Source: Malacoraja senta
Taxonomy: Eukaryota
Assembly: GCA_038087875.1 (NCBI GenBank)
Contig: CM075996.1
Location: 5,644,001 to 5,708,000 of the forward strand
Reading direction: 5' to 3'
Length of the DNA stretch: 64,000 nt
The translations under genes were made by a program, and so were the position numbers. The notes beneath the pieces are model-generated. The model did not search any database. It was not told the DNA's origin and saw nothing but the letters and a program-made list of their open reading frames with translations. Below are positions 15,882-55,853 of this stretch, piece by piece. The first letter of the stretch is position 1; each line of letters starts with the position of its first letter.

Positions 15882-16339
15882 AGGTAGGCTTGGATAGAGT
15901 GGATGTGGAGAAGATGTTTCCACCAGTGGGAGAGTCTAGGACCAGAGGTCACAGCCTCAGAATTAAAGGAGGTTCCTTTCGGAAGATGAGTCGGCATTTC
16001 TATAGTCAGCGGGTGGTGAATCTGTGGAATTCTTTGCCGCAGACAGCGGTGGAGGCCAAGTGAATGGATATTTTTAAGGCAGAGATAGATCAACAGATTC
16101 TTGATTAGTACGGGTGTCGGGGGTTATGGGGAGAAGGCAGGAGAATGGGGTTAGAAGGGAGAGATGATTGAATGGCGGAGTAGACTTGATGGGCTGAATG
16201 GCCTAATTCTGCTCCTATCAGGTATGAACTCCAGCAACACAGGACCAAGTGATGTATATGAAGTGATTTTATTTCGAGTTTAGCATTGGAGTGAGCGGAC
16301 ACTCTGGGGGAGAGAGAGGAGGCCGGTCGGTGTCAGGGC

Positions 16340-16498
16340 TCAGCAGGGAAACGCTGGGCGTTGGAGGAAGTGCCACAGGGTGTACGGCCACCTGGTCTTG
16401 GAATTCAGTTGCCGCTTCAGGATGTACGGCAACCTTTGGCGAACGGACCTGTTCAGCCTTCGTTTCCCGTTGTGTCTCCAAGCTTCACACAGCAGGAC
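16340..16498 (-). CDS. Neurotensin/neuromedin N-like precursor, terminal exon (VLLCEAWRHNGKRRLNRSVRQRLPYILKRQLNSKTRWPYTLWHFLQRPAFPC*)
   Basis: Strong (CT)n...CAG acceptor. LPYIL-KR-QL.....R.PY.L mirrors NTS KIPYIL-KR-QLYENKPRRPYIL. AATAAA on the minus strand at 16268-16273. Confidence 0.85.
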   Translation of the reverse strand, partial: VLLCEAWRHNGKRRLNRSVRQRLPYILKRQLNSKTRWPYTLWHFLQRPAFPC

Positions 16499-16974
16499 CT
16501 GAGGAGATGGACAGAGAGAGAGAGAGAGAGTGAGAGCATAAGACACAGCAGCAGAATTAGGCCATTCAGCCCATCGAGTGTGTGTGTTCCGCCATTCAAT
16601 CATGGCCGATCTACCTTTCTGCCGGTTCTCTCTCCGCCACACTCCGCACCCTCTCCCTCCCCACACTCCTCCCCCTTTCTCTCAACCCCCTTCTCCCCAT
16701 AACCCCTGACACCCTTATTGATCAAGAATCTGTTAACCTCCGCTTTAAATAATCCCCATGACTAGGCCTCCGCAGCCTCCACAGATTCACCGCCCTCTGG
16801 CTAAAGAAATTCCTCCTCATCTGCTTTCTAAAGGTACGTCCTTTAATTCTGAGGCTTTGCCCTCTGGTCCTAGACTCTCCCACTGGTGGAAACATCCTCT
16901 CCACTGTACCCAGGCCTTTCATGATTCAGTAGGTTTGGATGAGACCCCCGTGAGGGGGGGAGGGTGGTCAATAC

Positions 16975-17006
16975 GCGGAGCATGTCCCCCCGCAGCAGCC
17001 ACGTAA
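16975..17006 (-). CDS. Candidate 32-nt exon of the NTS-like gene (L-TWLLRGDMLR)
   Basis: ctccctttctctcag acceptor, weaker GTATTG donor. Needed only in splice model B. Confidence 0.4.
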
Positions 17007-17069
17007 CTGAGAGAAAGGGAGATCTGTGTGAGGGGTTAACGTGGATGTTTGGCAACGTAACGGGGAGCT

Positions 17070-18710
17070 AACTGGGGAACGGGTCACACACACACACACA
17101 CGCACACACACTGGGGAACGGGTCACACACACACACACACACTGGGGAACGGGTCACACACACACACACACACTGGGGAACGGGTCACACACACACACTG
17201 GGGAACGGGTCACACACTCGCACACGCACGCACACACACACTGGGGGAAGGAACACACACTCGCACACACACACACACGGGGAAGGAACACACACGTGCA
17301 CACACACACGCACACACACTGGGGGAAGGAACACACACTCGCACACACACACACACTGGGGGAAGGAACGCACACACACACACACTGGGGGAAGGAACAC
17401 ACACGCACGCACACACACACACTGGGGGAAGGAACGCACACTCGCGCACACACACACACTGGGGGAAGGGAACGCACACTCGCACACACACACACACACA
17501 TGGGGAAGGAACACACACACACACACACTGGGGGAAGGAACACACAATCGCACACTCACACGCGCGCGCACACGCACACAAACACACGGGGAGGGAACAC
17601 ACACTCGCACACTCACACTCGCTCAAAGACTCACACTCAAACACTCGCACACACACTTAAACATACACACACACTTGCACACTCAAACACTCGCACACAC
17701 ACACTTAAACACATACACTCACACACACTCAAACACACACACTCTCAAACATATACATTCACACAAACACACACTCAAACACACACACTCAAACACATAT
17801 GCACGCTCACACACACTCAAACACACACACACACACACTCAAACACACACACACTCAAACACACACTCACACACAAACAAGTCAAGTCACTTTTATTTCT
17901 ATAGCACATTTACAAAACAACTCTCGTTGACCAAAGTGCTTTACATTGGTGGAGGTACTAACGTTATACAACAGTGGTTCATAGATTAAGTACATACATA
18001 AATACATACATACAGCCCTCCCTCAGAGGACGTCAAGAAAGGCTTGAGAGTAAAGATGAGTTTTTAGTCTCGACTTAAAGGAGTCGATGGAGGGGCAGTT
18101 CTGATGGGAAGGGGGATGCTGTTCCACAGTCTAGGAGCTGCAACCGCAAAGGCGCGGTCGTCCCTGAGCTTATGCCTAGACGGATGTTCAGTAACCCACA
18201 CAAACGCACACACAAACACACACACTCAAACACACACACACTAACACTCACACACTCAAACACACACACACACACACTCACACACTCAAACACACACACA
18301 CTCAAACACACACACACACACACTCACACACTCAAACACACACACACTCAAACACACACACTCACACACTCAAACACACACACACACACTCACACACTCA
18401 CACACTCAAACACACACACACACACTCACACACTCACACACTCAAACACACACACACACACACTCACACACTCAAACACACACACACTAACACTCACACA
18501 CTCAAACACACACACACACACACTCACACACTCAAACACACACACACACTCAAACACACACACTCACACACTCAAACACACACACACACACACTCACACA
18601 CTCACACACTCAAACACACACACACACACACTCACACACTCAAACACACACACACACACTCACACACTCACACACTCAAACACACACACAAACACATACA
18701 CACACTCACT
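17070..18710. repeat. CA-rich compound arrays, interrupted by an L2 fragment
   Basis: Units ctggggaacgggtca(ca)n, ctgggggaagga(ac)n and ctcaaa(ca)n. Confidence 0.93.
17880..18183 (-). mobile_element. L2 LINE 3' fragment, same family as 31321
   Basis: Reverse complement matches about 31438-31745. Confidence 0.8.
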
Positions 18711-18855
18711 GGGGTCCAACAGTGTTTGTGTGTGTGCGGGGATCGCTGGTCGTCGTGGACCCGTTGGGCCGAAGGGCCTGTTTCCGCACTGTTTCTCTAA
18801 ACTAAACAAAATTACATTCTTCCACAGAGAGGTAAAGTAGTGAAAGTGTACTCAC

Positions 18856-18914
18856 GCGTGTGTTTTGCAAACCCTCGCTGGCAACGCGTGTCAGCCCTGT
18901 GGGAATCTGGAGCT
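18856..18914 (-). CDS. 59-nt internal exon of the NTS-like gene
   Basis: ttgtttttccccag acceptor and gtgagt donor, in an island of unique sequence between repeats. Confidence 0.7.
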
Positions 18915-19382
18915 CTGGGGAAAAACAAGGAGAGGCCATCAGCCAGTGGAAGTGAAGGTGTCCTCGCACACTTTAGTTTAGAGAAACAGGCCCTTCGGCC
19001 CACCGACTCCGCGCCGACCAGCGATCACCCCGTACACTAACATTATCCTACACACACTAGGGGCAATTTACAACTTTACCGAAGCCAATTAGCCTACAAG
19101 TCTGTATGTCTTTGGAGGAAACTGGCACACCCAGAGAAAAACCCATGCGGGTCATGGGGAGAACGTACAAACTTCGTACAGACAGCACCCGTGGTCAGGA
19201 TCGAACCTGGGTCTCTGGCGCTGTGAGGCAGCAACTCTACCGCTGCGTCACCGTGCCGCCCACATACGGTGGCAATACACTCACAAGTTCATAAGACATA
19301 GCAGCAGAGTTAGGCCACTCGGCCCATTGAGTCCATTCCGCCATTCAATTTTTCCCCTGATCTATCTTTCCCCTCTCAACTC

Positions 19383-22110
19383 ATAGATACATAGATACAT
19401 AGAAAATAGGTGCAGGAGTAGGCCATTCGGCCCTTCGAGCCTGCACCGCCATTCAATACGATCATGGCTGATCATCCAACTCAGTATCCCGTACCTGCCT
19501 TCTCTCCATACCCCCTGATCCCTTTAGCCACAAGGGCCACATCTAATTCCCTCTTAAATATAGCCAATGAACTGGCCTCAACTACCCTCTGTGGCAGAGA
19601 GTTCCAGAGATTCACCACTCTCTGTGTGAAAAAGTTTTTCCTCATCTCGGTCTTAAAGGATTTCCCCCTTATCCTTAAGCTGTGACCCCTTGTCCTGGAC
19701 TTCCCCAACATCGGGAACAATCTTCCTGCATCTAGCCTGTCCAACCCCATAAGAATTTTGTACGTTTCTATAAGATCCCCTCTCAATCTCCTAAATTCTA
19801 GCGAGTATAAGCCAAGTCTATCCAGTCTTTCTTCATATGAAAGTCCTGACATCCCAGGAATCAGTCTGGTGAACCTTCTCTGCACTCCCTCTATGGCTAT
19901 AATGTCCTTCCTCAGATTTGGAGACCAAAACTGTACGCAATACTCCAGGTGTGGTCTCACCAAGACCCTGTACAACTGCAGTAGAACCTCCCTGCTCCTA
20001 TACTCAAATCCTCTTGCTATGAAGGCCAACATACCATTCGCTTTCTTCACTGCCTGCTGCACCTGCATGCCTACTTTCAATGACTGGTGTACCATGACAC
20101 CCAGGTCTCGCTGCATCTCCCCATTTCCTAATCGGCCACCATTTAGATAATAGTCTGCCTTCCCGTTTTTGCTACCAAAGTGGATAACCTCACATTTATC
20201 CACATTATACTGCATCTGCCAAACATTTGCCCACTCACCCAGCCTATCCAGGTCACCTTGCAGTCTCCTAGCATCCTCCTCACAGCTAACACTGCCCCCC
20301 AGCTTAGTGTCATCCGCAAACTTGGAGATGTTGCTTTCAATTCCCTCGTCCAGATCATTAATATAAATTGTAAATAGCTGGGGTCCCAGCACTGAGCCTT
20401 GCGGTACCCCACTAGTCACTGCCTGCCATTGTGAAAAGGACCCGTTTACTCCTACTCTTTGCTTCCTGTTTGCCAGCCAGTTCTCTATCCACATCAATAC
20501 TGAACCCCCAATACCGTGTGATTTAAGTTTGTATCCTAATCTCTTATGTGGTACCTTGTCGAAAGCCTTCTGAAAGTCCAGATACAACACATCCACTGGT
20601 TCTCCCCTATCCACTCTACTAGTTACATCCTCGAAAAATTCTATAAGATTCGTCAGACACGATTTACCTTTCGTAAATCCATGCTGACTTTGTCCAATGA
20701 TTTCACCACTTTCCAAATGTGCTGCTATCCCATCTTTAATAACTGACTCTAGCAGTTTCCCCACTACCGATGTTAGACTAACTGGTCTGTAATTCCCCGT
20801 TTTCTCTCTCCCTCCCTTCTTAAAAAGTGGGGTTACGTTTGCTACCCTCCAATCCTCAGGAACTACTCCAGAATCTAAAGAGTTTTGAAAAATTATCACT
20901 AATGCATCCACTATTTCTGGAGCTACTTCCTTAAGTACTCTGGGATGCAGCCTATCTGGCCCTGGTGATTTATCGGCCTTTAATCCATTCAATTTACCCA
21001 ACACCACTTCCCGACTAACCTGGATTTCACTCAGTTCCTCCATCTCCTTTGACCCGCGGCCCCCTGCTATTTCCGGCAGATTATTTATGTCTTCCTTAGT
21101 GAAGACGGAACCAAAGTAGTTATTCAATTGGTCTGCCATATCCTTGTTCCCCATGATCAATTCACCTGTTTCTGACTGCAAGGGACCTACATTTGATTTA
21201 ACTAATCTCTTTCTCTTCACATATCTATAAAAACTTTTGCAGTCAGTTTTTATGTTCCCTGCCAGTTTCCTTTCATAATCTATTTTCCCTTTCCTAATTA
21301 AGCCCTTTGTCCTCCTCTGCTGGTCTCTGAATTTCTCCCAGTCCTCTGGTATGCTGCTTTTTCTGGCTAATTTGTACGCATCATCTTTTGCTTTGATACT
21401 ATCCCTGATTTCCCTTGTTATCCACGGATGCACTACCTTCCTTGATTTATTCTTTTGCCAAACTGGGATGAACAATTTTTGTAGTTCATCCATGCAGTCT
21501 TTAAATGCCTTCCATTGCATATCCACCGTCAACCCTTTTAGAACTAATTGCCAGTCAATCTTGGCCAATTCACGTCTCATACCCTCAAAGTTACCTTTCT
21601 TTAAGTTCAGAACCGTTGTTTCTGAATTAACAATGTCACTCTCCATCCTAATGAAGAACTCAACCATATTATGATCACTCTTGCCCAAGGGGGCACGCAC
21701 AACAAGTCTGCTAACTAACCCTTCCTCATTACTCAATACCAAGTCTAGAATAGCCTGCTCTCTCGTTGGTTCCTCTACATGTTGGTTTAGATAACTATCC
21801 CTCATACATTCCAAGAAATCCTCTTCCTCAGCACCCCTGCCAATTTGATTCACCCAATCTATATGTAGATTGAAGTCACCCATTATAACTGTTTTGCCTT
21901 TGTTGCACGCATTTCTAATTTCCTGTTTGATGCCATCCCCAACTTCACTACTACTGCTAGGTGGCCTGTACACAACACCCACCAGCGTTTTCTGCCCCTT
22001 AGTGTTTCGCAGCTCTACCCATAACGATTCCACATCCTCCAAGCTAATGTCCTTCCTTTCCACTGCGTTAATCTCCTCTCTAACCAGCAACGCTACCCCA
22101 CCTCCTTTTC
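19383..22110 (-). mobile_element. 5'-truncated young CR1 LINE with uninterrupted ORF2 (partial APE endonuclease + RT)
   Basis: 887-aa ORF with GDFN, SDH, PQGSVLGP and FADD motifs. CR1 3'UTR and (CTATGTAT)n tail. Splits an older CR1 3' fragment. Confidence 0.95.
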
Positions 22111-22327
22111 CATTCTCCTGCCTTCCCTCCGTAAGATTTGGCACCCTTACAAATCAAGAAACTGTCAATCTCCACTTTAAAAACACTCACTGACTTGGCC
22201 TCCACAGCTGTCTGTGGTGACGAGTCCCACAGATTCACCACCCTGTGACTAAATAAATTCCTCCTCATCTCCTTTCTAAAGGTTTATTCTGAGGCTGCGC
22301 CCTCTGGTCCTAGACTCTCCCACTCAC

Positions 22328-22344
22328 TCAGGGAAAAAAGCTGT
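22328..22344 (-). CDS. Candidate 17-nt micro-exon of the NTS-like gene
   Basis: tttgtttccccag acceptor and gtgagt donor; phase-compatible with the flanking exons. Confidence 0.5.
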
Positions 22345-22589
22345 CTGGGGAAACAAAGTCTAAGGGAGGAAAAACTGTTTCCACGTAACATTCCTTCAGT
22401 ATCCAGACACTGTTATCCCTTAAGAAGGCAGTCTGTCCTTTTTGTCATGGGAGGCCATTGAAAACGGCAAATAATCACTTCTATTGACACTCGTAAAAAT
22501 GATGCTCTGTTAAATAATATAAAAGGCCGCATTTTGTAAATTTTGGTAACAAAACTAAATTTAAGGCTATTAAAAGTCACTTTTTTTTC

Positions 22590-23250
22590 CTTTAAAAAAA
22601 TATATATATTTATTAGAAGTACATTACATTACAACCACATACATTAGTACTCGTCACTTATGTCTTCTTACAATTAATGTACTCCATTTATTTTTTACAC
22701 TAGAAAAGGAAAAGATTGAAAGAAAGAAGAAAGTGAAGGAAAAAGTGAGAGTGTAGAAAATGTGACAACAAGAAAGGACGAAGACCCTATAAGAGCAAAA
22801 TTAAAAACAAAAGAAAAAGAGTTAAGAAATAGACCCTAGAAAAGAAAGAGAAAGAGAAAGAGGAAAAAAAGAGAAACAAATATTTTTATGAGCATTACGT
22901 AAATGGGACATACCAACTCTTCAACTAGCATCCCCCCTTACCTGACCTCAATTTTTTTTTAAGGTACCTTTGCACCCTATATTTGTAATAATTCTATAAA
23001 TGCAGACCACGTCAGGTGGAAGTGATCTGGTTTACCTGCCAGGAGGAGTCTTATCTCTTCTAGGTGTAATGTTTCGAACATATTTGAAATCCACATGTTT
23101 ATGGTTGGTATTGGAGCCTTCTTCCAAAATTTTAGAATTAGCTTTTTTCCAGTTATTAACCCATAGTCTATTAGTTTCTTTTGAAACACATTTAGTTCTG
23201 GACCATCTTCCGTTATTCCGAAGATACTTCGGATTAAAAGTTACTTTAAA
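22590..23250 (-). mobile_element. L1-like LINE 3' fragment
   Basis: KKLILKFWKK..PTINMWI...LHLE resembles an L1 ORF2 C-terminus; pyrimidine-rich UTR and A-rich tail. A related fragment lies at about 56870-57395. Confidence 0.6.
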
Positions 23251-25001
23251 AAGCTGCAGCACCCGCTGGGTTTCTCCAGCACTTTTGTCTACCTTCGATT
23301 TTCCAGCATCTGCAGTTCCATCTTGAACACTTTATTTTTGAACCGCTTTGTTATTGCGAGTCCACAACTCTCTCGCCCTGAACCCCCTTTTTCACCATCG
23401 GTTACACACAGCCCAGACCATCACGCACACCAACCTCCCTTCCATCCACTCCATCTACACCTAACGCTGCCTCGGCAAGGCCAGCAGCATAATCAAGGAC
23501 CAGTCTCATCCCGGTCACTCCCTCTTCTCCCCTCTCCCATCAGGCTAGAGGTGCAGAAGTGTGAAAACGCATACCTCCAGAGTCAGGGGCAGTCTGAAGA
23601 AGGGTTTCGGCCCGAAACGTTGCCTATTTCCTTCGCTCCATAGATGCTGCTTCACCCGCTGAGTTTCTCCAGCACTTTTGTCTACATCCTATTACCAGCT
23701 AGAGTGCGGTCCTGACCTCCCATCTACCTCATTGGAGACCTACAAACTATCTTTAATCGGACTTTATCTTGCAATAAATGTTGTGTCCTTTATCCTTTAT
23801 CTGTACACTGTGGACGGCTCGATTATAATCATGTATTATAGTCTTTTCTTTGACTGGGCAGCAGGTAACAAAAAGCTTTTAATTCTACCTTGGTACACAT
23901 GACAATTATAAACCAGACTGAAGAAGGGTCTCGAACTGAAACGCCACCTATTCCTTTTCTCTCGAGAAGCTGCCTAACCTGCTGAGTTAGACAACACACA
24001 ATAGGTTCAGGAGTAGGCCATTCGGCCCCTTGAGCCAGCACCGCCATTCAATGTGATCATGGCTGATCATCCCCAATCAGTGCCCCGTTCCTGCCTTCTC
24101 CCCATAGCCCCATAACCCCGCTATCCCTAAGAGCTCTGTCTAACTCTCTCTTGAAAGCATCCAAAGAACCAGCCTCCACCGCCCTCTGAGGCAGAGAATT
24201 CCACAGAACCAGGGGCCACAGTTTAAGAATAAGGGTAAGCCATTTAGAACGGAGACGAGGAAACACTTTTTCTCACAGAGAGTTGTGAGTCTGTGGAATT
24301 CTCTGCCTCAGAGGGCGGTGGAGGCAGGTTCTCTGGATACTTTCAAGAGAGAGCTAGATAGGGCTCTTAAAAATAGTGGAGTCAGGGGATATGGGGAGAA
24401 GGCAGGAATGGGGTGTTAAAGAAGGAACTGCAGATGCTGGAAAATCGAAGGTACACAAAAATGCTGGAGAAACTCAGCGGGTGCAGCAGCATCTATGGAG
24501 CGAAGGAAATAGGTAACATTTCGGGCCGAAACCCTTCTTCAGACGCAGTCTTAAGCAGGAACGGGGTACTGATTGGAGATGATCAGCCATGATCACATTG
24601 AATGGCGGTGCTGGCTCAAAGGGCCAAATGGCCTAATCCTGCACCTATTGTCTATTGTCTATTGTCACACACCTACAACTCTCTGTGTGAAAAAGTGTTT
24701 CCTTATCTGCGTTCTATCACGTGCAGGCAGAGGAGATCAGTTTAACTTGGCATGGTGTTCGGCCCAGACATTGTGGGCCAAGGGCCCTGTTGTGCTGTAC
24801 TGTCCAGCATTCTGTGTATGCAGTTTCTAGATCATCCCAGAATGCTGCATCAATGAAGTGTGTGCCTCTTACTCAGAGAACATAGAATAAACATAGAACA
24901 GTCCAGTACACGATGTTTGTGCCCAACGAGTTACTCCAACTATTTATGTCCATCTTAAACTAAACTAATCACATAATTTTCTACAACATGAGATTTCTTA
25001 C

Positions 25002-25044
25002 CGGGCACAACTGTCGTGCCATAGCAGAGTAAATAGCCTGCACC
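25002..25044 (-). CDS. 43-nt internal exon of the NTS-like gene
   Basis: ttccag acceptor and gtaaga donor. One frame reads VQAIYSAMARQLCP. Confidence 0.6.
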
Positions 25045-25152
25045 CTGGAACCAGTCAAGCAGGCTTCATTGCACAAGGTGCAAAGTGCGTCAGGCAGTAT
25101 CTGTGGAGGAAATGGACTGACAACTTTTCTGTTTGGTATCCTTCTTCAGAGT

Positions 25153-25225
25153 GGCTCCATAGCTCAGGGGTTAGAGCACTGGTCTTGTAAACCAGGGGTC
25201 GTGAGTTCAAATCTCACTGGAGCCT
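25153..25225 (+). tRNA. tRNA-Thr(TGT)
   Basis: 73-nt cloverleaf with all stems paired: GGCTCCA/TGGAGCC, GCTC/GAGC, CTGGT/ACCAG, GTGAG/CTCAC. Anticodon loop CTTGTAA; TTTT at 25231-25234. Confidence 0.95.
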
Positions 25226-25843
25226 GAATCTTTTCTGCCTGGATCTGTTCCATTATGTCGGGGACTGATCAATTGGCGACGTTTGAGACACCAAGGAAAG
25301 GGTGTGTGTATCTGTATACCTTCACTCCACCCCTTTGTCATTCCCTCGTTCCTCTCTATCTCCTTTTGTGGATGCCTCAAGGGCCTGTCCCACTTGGGCC
25401 ACGTTTCCGGCGACAGCCTGAAAAGAGGTTGTCGCGGGGTGACACGGGGTGACACAGGGGTGACACGGGGTGACACAGGGTGACGCATTTAATGACTGGA
25501 TTTTGGAATGTTCAAAATCTTGATTTGGGATTTTTCTGGATTCGGGAAATCTGGATTTTGGAATGTTCAAAAATATTTCCGTGCCACCTGCGTGTCTCAT
25601 CATGTCGTGGGCTGAAAAAAATCGCAACAGAAATCATTCTCTCTTTCTCAATGAGTTTGAAGAAAGGTCTGACCCAAATCGGCACCTCTTCATTCCCTCC
25701 ACGGATGCCACCTGACGCGCTGAGTTTCTCAGCAGTTGGACAGAGATGGCCATGGTGGGGCTACCCAGTTGCCCAGAGAGTGGACAGTGAGTACGAGGGG
25801 AGTGCCAGTGATTTACGCAGAAACGTGGAGAGTGCCCCGTCAC

Positions 25844-25868
25844 CGAATGACAACTCCCATCCCCCCGT
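25844..25868 (-). CDS. Candidate 25-nt exon of the NTS-like gene (D-GGMGVVI-R)
   Basis: tgtgtgcag acceptor and gtgacg donor. Needed only in splice model B. Confidence 0.4.
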
Positions 25869-25899
25869 CTGCACACACACCCTCGACACACTGCATCCG

Positions 25900-27410
25900 C
25901 ACTGGCTCACTGTCCCCACACTGGGCCCAACTTGCCCACACTGGGCCCAACACGTCCCCACACTGGGCCCAACACGTCCCCACACTGGGCCCAACACGTC
26001 CCCACACTGGGCCCAACACGTCCCCACACTGGGCCAAACACGTCCCCACACTGGGCCAAACACGTCCCCACACTGGGCCCAACATGTCCCCACACTGGGC
26101 CCAACACGTCCCCACACTGGGCCCAACACGTCCCCACACTGGGCCCAACATGTCCCCACACTGGGCCCAACACGTCCCCACACTGGGCCCAACATGTCCC
26201 CACACTGGGCCCAACACGTCCCCACACTGGGCCCAACATGTCCCCACACTGGGCCCAACACGTCCCCACACTGGGCCCAACATGTCCCCACACTGGGCCC
26301 AACATGTCCCCACACTGGGCCCAACACGTCCCCACACTGGGCCCAACATGTCCCCACACTGGGCCCAACTTGCCCACACTGGGCCCAACACGTCCCCACA
26401 CTGGGCCAAACACGTCCCCACACTGGGCCCAACATGTCCCCACACTGGGCCCAACTTGCCCACACTGGGCCCAACACGTCCCCACACTGGGCCCAACATG
26501 TCCCCACACTGGGCCAAACACGTCCCCACACTGGGCCCAACATGTCCCCACACTGGGCCAAACACGTCCCCACACTGGGCCCAACACGTCCCCACACTGG
26601 GCCCAACACGTCCCCACACTGGGCCCAACATGTCCCCACACTGGGCCCAACTTGCCCACACTGGGCCCAACACGTCCCCACACTGGGCCCAACATGTCCC
26701 CACACTGGGCCCAACTTGCCCACACTGGGCCCAACACGTCCCCACACTGGGCCCAACATGTCCCCACACTGGGCCCAACTTGCCCACACTGGGCCCAACA
26801 CGTCCCCACACTGGGCCAAACACGTCCCCACACTGGGCCCAACATGTCCCCACACTGGGCCAAACACGTCCCCACACTGGGCCCAACACGTCCCCACACT
26901 GGGCCCAACACGTCCCCACACTGGGCCCAACATGTCCCCACACTGGGCCAAACACGTCCCCACACTGGGCCCAACATGTCCCCACACTGGGCCCAACACG
27001 TCCCCACACTGGGCCCAACATGTCCCCACACTGGGCCCAACACGTCCCCACACTGGGCCCAACATGTCCCCACACTGGGCCCAACACGTCCCCACACTGG
27101 GCCCAACATGTCCCCACACTGGGCCCAACTTGCCCACACTGGGCCCAACACGTCCCCACACTGGGCCCAACTTGCCCACACTGGGCCCAACATGTCCCCA
27201 CACTGGGCCCAACTTGCCCACACTGGGCCCAACACATCCCCACACTGGGCCCAACTTGCCCACACTGGGCCCAACACGTCCCCACACTGGCTCACTGTCC
27301 CCACACTGGGCCCAACTTGCCCACACTGGGCCCAACACGTCCCCACACTGAGCCCAACTTGCCCACACTGGGCCCAACACGTCCCCACACTGGGCCCAAC
27401 ATGTCCCACA
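25900..27410. repeat. 20/22-bp minisatellite (CCCCACACTGGGCCCAACAYGT)
   Basis: Direct tandem array of about 1.5 kb. Confidence 0.97.
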
Positions 27411-27948
27411 CACTAGTCCCACCTGCTTGCTCTTGGTTCATATCCCTCCACACTTGTCCTATCCATGCACCTGTCTAACTGTTTCTTAAACATTTGGACA
27501 GTCCCAGTCTCTGGCAGCTTGTTCCATACACCCACCACCCTTTGTGTGAAAAAGTTACCCCCTCAGATTCCTGTTAAATCTTTTCCCCTTCACCTTGAAC
27601 CTATGTCCTCTGGTCCTCGATTCCCCTACCCTGGGCAAGAGACTCTGTGCATCTACCCGATCTGCTCCTCTCATGATTTCGTACACCTGCTTTTAAGGCA
27701 GAGATAGATAGATTCTTGATCACTACGGGTGTCAGGGATTATGGGGAGAATGGGGTTAGGAGGGAGACATACTGTAGATCAGCCATGATTGAATGGCGGA
27801 GTAGACTCGATGGGCCGAACGGCCTAATTCTATTCCCATTCCTTGTGACATTATGACCTTACGACTCGCTGGGTTACTCCAGCATTTTGTGTCTGTTTCC
27901 TGCCTTCTCTCTGTTCCCCCCACTCTGACTGAATATTCCCATTCCCAC

Positions 27949-28009
27949 CTGTGCAAACTCCAAACGTTCCGACCAGGATTCCGATCAACCACAGTGTCTG
28001 CAGCTTCAT
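27949..28009 (-). CDS. Signal-peptide exon of the NTS-like gene (MKLQTLWLIGILVGTFGVCT)
   Basis: gccATG context, basic n-region, hydrophobic core and small-residue end. Phase-1 gtggga donor; upstream acceptor at 28020. Confidence 0.8.
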
Positions 28010-28256
28010 GGCTCCGACCCCTGGAATGCAAACACAAACCGCAGTTTAGTTTAGTTGTATTGAGTTTAGTTTATTGTCACTTGTACCGAGGTACAGTGAA
28101 AGGCTTTTGTTGCGTGCTAACTAGTCAGCGGAGAGACAATACGTGGTTGTAATCGAGCCATTTACGGCGTGTAGAGGTATGATAAGGGAATAACGTTTAG
28201 TGCAAGGTAAAGCCAGCAAAGTCCAATTAAAGGAAAGTCCGAGTGTTTAAGAAAGA

Positions 28257-32243: not shown

Positions 32244-32404
32244 CTTTGTGAGTTGAAGATGCTGAGGGTCTTGGACAATGGTCTTGGTTCCTCCACTGCG
32301 ATTCGTTGGTCTTGGACTGGTGCAGCAGTATTTATTGAGAGATCTCTCAGGGGGGTGGGGACAACATGGCCAGGGGCGGCTCCCTCAGCACCGACGATGC
32401 AAAT
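32244..32404 (-). promoter_or_regulatory. Candidate promoter and non-coding first exon of the NTS-like gene
   Basis: AAG|GTAAGG donor at 32244, ATAAATA at 32329-32335, octamer ATTTGCAT at 32397-32404. Inference only. Confidence 0.35.
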
Positions 32405-33346: not shown

Positions 33347-33828
33347 TGATGCATGTTGCATGCTGCATGTTGCATGTGCATGTTGTGTGATGCATGTTGT
33401 GATGTATGTTGCATGTTGCATGATGCATGTTGTGTAATGCATGTTGCATGTTGTGTGATGCATGTTGTGTGATGCATGTTGTGTGATGCATGTTGCATGC
33501 TGCATGTTGTGTGATGCATGTTGTGATGTATGTTGCATGTTGCATGTTGCATGATGCATGTTGTGTAATGCATGTTGCATGTTGCATGATGCATGTTGTG
33601 TAATGCATGTTGCATGTTGTGTGATGCATGTTGTGTGATGCATGTTGCATGATGCATGTTGTGCAATGCATGTTGCATGATGCATGTTGTGTAATGCATG
33701 TTGCATGTTGTGTGATGCATGTTGTGTGATGTATGTTGCATGATGCATGTTGTGCAATGCATGTTGTGTGATGCATGTTGCATGTTGCATGATGCATGTT
33801 GTGTGATGCGTGTTGCATGTTGCATGCA
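33347..33828. repeat. TGCATGT-based tandem repeat
   Basis: Directly visible. Confidence 0.95.
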
Positions 33829-40642: not shown

Positions 40643-40842
40643 NNNNNNNNNNNNNNNNNNNNNNNNNNNNNNNNNNNNNNNNNNNNNNNNNNNNNNNNNN
40701 NNNNNNNNNNNNNNNNNNNNNNNNNNNNNNNNNNNNNNNNNNNNNNNNNNNNNNNNNNNNNNNNNNNNNNNNNNNNNNNNNNNNNNNNNNNNNNNNNNNN
40801 NNNNNNNNNNNNNNNNNNNNNNNNNNNNNNNNNNNNNNNNNN
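40643..40842. other. Assembly gap (200 N)
   Basis: Run of N. Confidence 1.
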
Positions 40843-55508: not shown

Positions 55509-55853
55509 GGACGACAGATGGCGCAATGGGCTAAGTGTTCGGCTGGCAACCGGAAGGTAGCCGGTTCAAATCCCGCTTGGAGTGCATACTGTCGTTGTGT
55601 CCTTGGGAAAGACACTTCACCCACCTTTGCCTGCGTGTGAATGCGTGTGAATGTGTGTGAGTGATTGGTGGTGGTCGGAGGGGACGTAGGCGCAAATTAG
55701 CAGCCACGCTTCCGTCAGTCTGCCCCAGGGCAGCTGTGGCTACAGAAGTAGCTCACCACCACCGAGTGTGACTGAGGAGTGAATGAATAATGCGATGTAA
55801 AGCGCCTTGAGTATTAGAAAGGCGCTATATAAATCCCATCCATTATTATTATT
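55509..55853 (+). mobile_element. CORE-type SINE with L2-like tail
   Basis: tRNA head, CORE-like gtgtccttggg.aagacactt, and tgtaaagcg...aggcgctatataaat(ATT)n tail. Confidence 0.8.

Follow-up and report, generated by a model that had tools for sequence, protein, structure and literature searches.

Does the skate Malacoraja senta carry a second neurotensin precursor gene beside NTS? The question is raised by a 64,000-nucleotide stretch of its genome (the window hereafter; G000:C20:5644001-5708000, in 1.94 Gb of sequence examined), in which an earlier note, made from the letters alone, had proposed a divergent neurotensin/neuromedin N-like paralogue of NTS that arose by genome duplication and was kept in cartilaginous fish but lost in mammals. 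We find that a conserved gene almost certainly exists here. It is likely to be an intact second NTS-family gene ('NTS2'), paralogous to NTS, older than the shark-ray split, most plausibly an ohnologue, and with an altered processing mechanism.

A divergent NTS-family gene and its elasmobranch orthologues

The gene lies on the minus strand and has three coding exons (28009-27949, 18914-18856 and 16498-16340) separated by introns of phases 1 and 0. When joined, these exons give a coding frame of 279 nt that specifies a 92-amino-acid prepropeptide without an internal stop. Splice sites are canonical at all three introns, and every exon falls within a non-repeat island. The terminal exon reads GKRR...RLPYILKRQLNSKTRWPYTL; in order, GKRR is followed by ...RLPYIL-KR-QLNSKTRWPYTL and then by 11 more residues to the stop. 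Its sole Pfam match is Pro-NT_NN (PF07421; E 8.8e-4), which the last exon alone reaches at 19.8 bits, below the curated cut-off of 25.3. The features of the gene, from its 5' end, are as follows.

32329..32336, minus strand: TATA-like element (AATAAATA), seen in the sequence some 25 nt upstream of where exon 1 is inferred to begin; putative function
32244..32310, minus strand: non-coding exon 1 (5' end approximate), with a strong donor AAG/GTAAGG at 32244; donor-anchored sawfish match
27949..28020, minus strand: signal-peptide exon, with acceptor at 28020, ATG at 28009 in a GCCATG context, 61 coding nt and a phase-1 donor at 27949
18856..18914, minus strand: internal exon with 59 coding nt of the pro-region, from phase 1 to phase 0; sawfish match of 67%, E 0.006
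16340..16498, minus strand: terminal coding exon, phase 0, 52 amino acids plus TGA at 16340, with both neurotensin-like repeats, read from the sequence
16418..16459, minus strand: predicted peptide 1, bounded by GKR and KR and ending RLPYIL; 14 residues, or 13 after trimming of the third basic residue; predicted processing
16343..16411, minus strand: second repeat, 23 residues, starting with Q and containing RWPYTL, without a following dibasic site, read from the sequence
16268..16273, minus strand: polyadenylation signal AATAAA, 67 nt past the stop codon

This model confirms the signal-peptide exon of the earlier note, from its ATG to its phase-1 donor, and modifies the remainder. The terminal exon has the phase 0, GKRR, KR and AATAAA described for it, but it does not end at PYTL: 11 residues and the stop follow, and no KR. 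The small exons do lie in non-repeat islands, but 18914-18856 is the sole internal exon with support; the candidate at 25100-25002 (AG/GT) is out of phase and adjoins a tRNA-Thr gene. The coding exons stand as proposed, whereas the gene itself starts further up, with the non-coding exon that ends at 32244.

A HMMER search of 1.84 billion representative proteins with the last exon returned three matches. Two are elasmobranch models: LOC127585424 of the sawfish Pristis pectinata (XP_051898809; model P0001), 'uncharacterized' in RefSeq (E 2.8e-8), and chiPu_0019899 of the bamboo shark Chiloscyllium punctatum (GCC21428; model P0002), a 'hypothetical protein' (E 1.5e-4). Over the three shared exons they are 58% and 50% identical to the skate gene, respectively. 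The third match, P0003 (671 amino acids, repetitive, metagenomic), is unrelated and due to chance. When the sawfish model was used in tblastn, its three top matches in the window fell on the three exons, in their order along the gene (E 3e-13, 9e-4 and 6e-3). Since two independent elasmobranch models match the last exon and the tblastn exons are ordered, a chance origin is ruled out. Retention in cartilaginous fish is supported by these models from a ray and a shark, and the PYIL-KR sequence that was expected to be conserved in relatives lies in a PYILKRQ block that is invariant in all four aligned rows.

The upstream exons are supported individually. Hydropathy of the signal exon reaches 2.5 across residues 3-20, and tblastn matches to this exon came from sawfish at E 8.8e-4 and from bamboo shark at E 0.007. 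Among 4430 donor-anchored frames, that of the internal exon ranks first with sawfish (54 versus 15) and with bamboo shark (20 versus 18). For the 15 residues of the sawfish model just ahead of its signal exon, the frame that closes at donor 32244 scores 37 and ranks first of 4430 minus-strand GT sites (runner-up, 15), showing that exon 1, non-coding in the skate, is conserved with sawfish. The signal, the pro-region and an LL(C/S)E(A/T)W block are common to the three orthologues and unlike NTS.

Compared to the skate gene, the sawfish model is extended at its N-terminus by repeat-derived sequence (more than 100 repeat copies were matched in the skate genome), and the sawfish and bamboo shark models, which are unnamed and carry no Pfam label, contain middle segments without a skate counterpart. 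The sawfish segment scored no better than 64 of 500 shuffles and had no match genome-wide; the two segments show no resemblance to one another (p 0.22), and in comparisons with intron 2, 30 and 36 of 47 control stretches were equally good for sawfish and bamboo shark, respectively. A hidden Markov model of 75 long NTS proteins found no fourth coding exon like exon 3 of bony vertebrates in the window or at the canonical NTS locus. The island at 16905-17070, tried as an exon, gave no in-phase reading, and we take its lower part to be long interspersed nuclear element (LINE) sequence. Run X1, from another organism and RNA by our guess, provided a 290-nt contig that aligns to 16311-16495; its remaining 102 letters occur nowhere in 16200-17075. 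This could reflect splicing at 16498, but the aligner skips a repeat at 16501-16543.

No further family member was found among 490 candidates in a profile search, a word-based homologue search gave no match, ESM Atlas matches were all under 0.9, and matches at L002, L003 and L085 were due to chance. In protein database searches, which are blind to unannotated genes, the divergent gene was found only in elasmobranchs, and it may have been lost in mammals.

The long introns contain other features. A tRNA-Thr(TGT) gene (25153-25225, plus strand) lies in intron 2 on the strand opposite to the hormone gene. The intron after the signal exon holds a 22-bp minisatellite (25912-27421, about 70 copies, 89% matches) and a reverse-transcriptase-like open stretch (20052-22100, minus strand), presumably of LINE type. 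CA-rich arrays occupy 17071-18709, and a 14/35-bp array lies at 33347-33826.

Relation to canonical NTS

Canonical NTS is a separate locus in this genome, at G000:C3:59499776-59514153 (L006:5776 to L004:1653), and is 97% identical to little-skate nts. Its upstream exons were missed by an ab initio scan and recovered by tblastn. The gene has three coding exons for 96 amino acids, with phases 1 and 0 as in the divergent gene; the first two measure 58 and 68 nt, compared to 61 and 59 nt in the divergent gene. The two skate genes lie on different chromosomes and share 26% identity. Bamboo shark also has both genes, the divergent P0002 and a canonical nts (P0012). A genome-wide search with the pattern PYILKRQ gave three matches, the two known genes and one chance match (one match in the control); no third PYILKRQ locus was found.

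We compared 20 sequences in an unrooted tree of 100 columns without an outgroup, from which the middle segments of the orthologue models had been left out. A branch with 100/100 support sets the three divergent sequences apart from 17 canonical rows, and they are nested in neither canonical group. Identity of the divergent gene to these 17 rows is 22-28% (22-27% to cartilaginous and 24-28% to bony NTS). Together with the presence of a separate canonical NTS on C3, this branch bears out the proposal of a divergent NTS paralogue.

The divergent gene is like NTS in its signal peptide, its phase-1 and phase-0 introns, its short three-coding-exon form, the KR-Q between PYIL-type repeats and a length of about 92-96 amino acids. 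Six other cartilaginous NTS proteins were listed, all of 95-96 amino acids and without the 75-amino-acid middle exon of bony vertebrates; given this length, no long middle exon is missing from the skate gene. In the introns of canonical skate NTS no relic of that exon was found, and short NTS isoforms are annotated in bony vertebrates too. In contrast, the divergent gene has RQ for KR before the first hexapeptide, RW for RR and W for KR round the second motif, a basic rather than acidic stretch ahead of the repeats, and an extra non-coding first exon.

These substitutions affect sites that are nearly constant in NTS. Counted in 120 canonical proteins among 484 matches, KR precedes the first (neuromedin N) hexapeptide in 120/120 and a dibasic pair follows the second motif in 119/120. 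The divergent paralogues have RQ before the first hexapeptide in all three sequences and W after the second motif in both sequences with a complete end. The skate gene has neither KR before the hexapeptide nor RRPYIL with a dibasic end; it does have a signal-like core, tandem PYIL-type repeats split by KR, and the shared intron phases. Judged by its sequence, it is an NTS-family homologue without the defining processing features of canonical pro-neurotensin/neuromedin N.

Chromosomal neighbourhood and origin

The 224 kb round the gene contain five neighbours: a myocardin-family gene with RPEL, a TEAD gene whose end is near 12 kb, a BCAT gene that occupies about 48-61 kb, a gene with sacsin domains, and a TULP gene. 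Human BCAT2 scores 64 bits with the window BCAT exon versus 51-54 with a paralogue on C9, while human BCAT1 scores 96 with the C9 paralogue versus 81; by these reciprocal scores, the window gene is assigned to BCAT2. It is the next identifiable gene upstream of the divergent gene, a place that the earlier note had given to CD37. That neighbour was not found: none of 34 genome-wide tetraspanin matches falls on contig C20, the 150 of 209 island open reading frames scanned at 28-48 kb contain no CD37, and no tetraspanin-like motif context was found. The rows listed in a further scan for it were matches to repeats. A 200-N assembly gap (40643-40842) lies between the hormone gene and BCAT2 and could hide a small missing gene. 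The TEAD neighbour is present, but its label as TEAD2 rests on synteny.

TULP loci lie on C20 and C18, on C5 next to a TEAD, and at two sites on C3; the C9 BCAT copy lies 4 Mb from NT-3, and an L27-domain gene, which we take to be LIN7A, lies 2.8 Mb from canonical NTS. The TEAD, TULP and BCAT families presumably mark the human 1/6-11-12-19 paralogon, with BCAT2, TULP2, TEAD2 and MAMSTR on 19q13. Because the neighbour families mark this paralogon, an ohnologue origin is the simplest reading, and we hold it to be very likely that the gene stems from the early vertebrate genome duplications. The proposed genome duplication is upheld to the extent that the segment belongs to this paralogon, and either round (1R/2R) may be its source.

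The same neighbours bear on another possibility, a real paralogue that arose without any genome duplication, from a local event or one specific to chondrichthyans, and then diverged fast and moved to its present place. Its restriction to elasmobranchs in the database searches and the short three-exon form common to the divergent gene and cartilaginous NTS would fit such a history, and the unrooted tree is compatible with a stem-chondrichthyan origin. However, BCAT2, TEAD and the fourth TULP are paralogues of genes on NTS-type segments, the divergent gene is no closer to cartilaginous than to bony NTS, and short isoforms are annotated also in bony vertebrates. We regard a lineage-specific duplication as quite unlikely.

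The ohnologue reading has its own difficulties. The window TEAD has its best PDB matches in TEAD1 and TEAD4 and its lowest in TEAD2; only three TEAD loci (C20, C3 and C5) were found in the genome; C3 is evidently a fused chromosome, which makes sharing C3 with NTS weak synteny; and the tree, with about 100 columns and no outgroup, does not date the duplication. No TEAD4 was found beside the TULP at C3:88.4 Mb, in 140 kb. BCAT2, TEAD and TULP support a segment paralogous to that of NTS indirectly, since the nearest NTS neighbours are not matched one to one.

Several observations concern the surroundings rather than the hormone gene. The sacsin-domain gene lies between BCAT2 and TULP on the plus strand, from L028:7049 to L031:5000 (about 37-65 kb past the window end), and has at least two SACS domains; we know of no sacsin-domain gene at the human counterpart of this interval. 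The myocardin-family gene with its RPEL repeat lies directly upstream of TEAD, also on the plus strand, between L024:6908 and L021 (10-55 kb ahead of the window), and is presumably a candidate for the full-length ancestor of human MAMSTR, which is without RPEL. Two tRNA-Ala-like copies sit in BCAT2 introns, at 55511 and 58520. With the queries used, TEAD4, NGF and NT-4 were not found genome-wide (only two neurotrophin loci were), and are lost, divergent or absent from the assembly. At G000:C7:1.7-5.0 Mb there is a large tandem cluster of SLC6 (SNF family) transporters, with more than 20 matches to one exon region.

Predicted peptides and significance

The arrangement of cleavage sites points to a precursor that probably yields a single agonist. 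The 92-residue precursor would enter the secretory pathway through its signal peptide. Prohormone convertases, which cut pro-neurotensin (PMC10218060), would act on two KR sites, one about 14 residues ahead of the first PYIL and one following it, and a carboxypeptidase would trim the basic residues to leave one peptide of 13-14 residues with a free ...R-L-P-Y-I-L C-terminus. The NT8-13 segment is the NTSR1 pharmacophore, for which a free C-terminal carboxylate is needed (PMC11726378). Predicted peptide 1 may act on a neurotensin-type G-protein-coupled receptor, like an N-extended neuromedin N. The second repeat, which holds the position of true neurotensin in NTS, has lost RR and the closing KR and would give a C-terminally extended peptide, unlikely to fit the NTSR1 pocket and activate this receptor, so that the active peptide would have moved from the second to the first repeat.

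A KR stands 14 residues ahead of the first PYIL end in skate and bamboo shark. In sawfish the second motif is KWPYIL, followed by W. At window position 16380 the assembly encodes Thr in the second motif, while runs X1 and X2, from two further organisms that both carry the last exon, have Ile; the Thr may be an allele, a species difference or an assembly error. Additional changes are present in the last exon of X1, yet GKR, PYIL and KR are kept among the rows listed. The Thr and the two lost processing sites would also be expected of a decaying or silent copy in this skate. Against decay, the 279 nt contain no stop or frameshift, the three introns have canonical splice sites, a poly(A) signal follows, the non-coding exon is conserved, and identity to the ray and shark orthologues is 50-58%. 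We consider decay very improbable.

A functional secreted gene might instead act on a receptor other than NTSR1/2, perhaps through the extended second peptide or the conserved pro-region. Conservation of the signal, of the pro-region and of the LL(C/S)E(A/T)W block in the three orthologues would be explained in this way, as would the PYIL-W and equal-length hydrophobic tail kept in skate and sawfish, and non-mammals are reported to have a clade of orphan receptors close to NTSR and GPR39 (PMC6504862). However, PYILKRQ, the sole invariant block, yields the classic free C-terminus, and the bamboo shark model is without the tail; such a receptor is unlikely. Also improbable is an undescribed genome-duplication sister of NTS, kept in sharks and rays, with swapped repeat roles, the first repeat giving the 13-14-residue agonist and the second a C-terminally extended peptide for another receptor, perhaps an orphan, close to NTSR and GPR39. 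If true, mammals would have lost a ligand-receptor pair that is new.

Returning to an intact NTS ohnologue with a single agonist, certain data count against it in addition to those on its origin. A Pfam family search of the genome found only the C3 locus, at 59.5 Mb, and missed the window gene, whose last exon also falls short of the curated threshold. Sawfish has KQ at the position of the upstream KR, with KK nearer, and peptide length is not constant. PYTL in the reference second repeat and a shark model that ends before this repeat suggest that the second repeat is decaying. The gene is known here from genomic sequence, and the action of peptide 1 on a skate receptor is a prediction.

CRH2, KISS3 and SPX2 are ohnologous hormone genes lost in mammals or teleosts and kept in cartilaginous fish; the skate gene shows the same evolutionary pattern in another peptide family. 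As to the earlier note's 'possibly unannotated', the gene has no name in protein databases, but a partly wrong RefSeq model exists in sawfish, and Table 1 of Furlong and Seong (2017; PMC5207463) lists 'NTS' and 'NTS2' as post-2R members, without species, locus or sequence. As tabulated there, 'NTS2' is like the skate gene a second post-2R neurotensin precursor gene beside NTS; Yun et al. (2015), the study behind the name, or its supplement may already cover the skate gene or a different ohnologue. NTS is reported in lamprey (PMC10555824) and one NTS is listed in a cichlid survey (PMC4992253), and the accessible text on zebrafish (PMC12714231), the skate genome (PMC10115646) and an ohnologue-database supplement (PMC13450315) contains nothing on a second NTS gene. 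The literature searched, mostly without subscription papers, contained no report of an elasmobranch with two neurotensin genes. Novelty is limited, as cartilaginous fish are well known for hormone ohnologues of the lost kind and 'NTS2' is a name already in use.

Standard family searches miss such genes, as the Pfam search of the skate genome did, and the present gene puts a name on two unnamed database models, from sawfish and bamboo shark. Its peptide, natural and defined in sequence, can serve in tests of skate neurotensin receptors and of related orphans. For most vertebrates neurotensin is regarded as a family of one gene, and a second intact precursor in rays and sharks revises the reconstruction of the ancestral jawed-vertebrate system.

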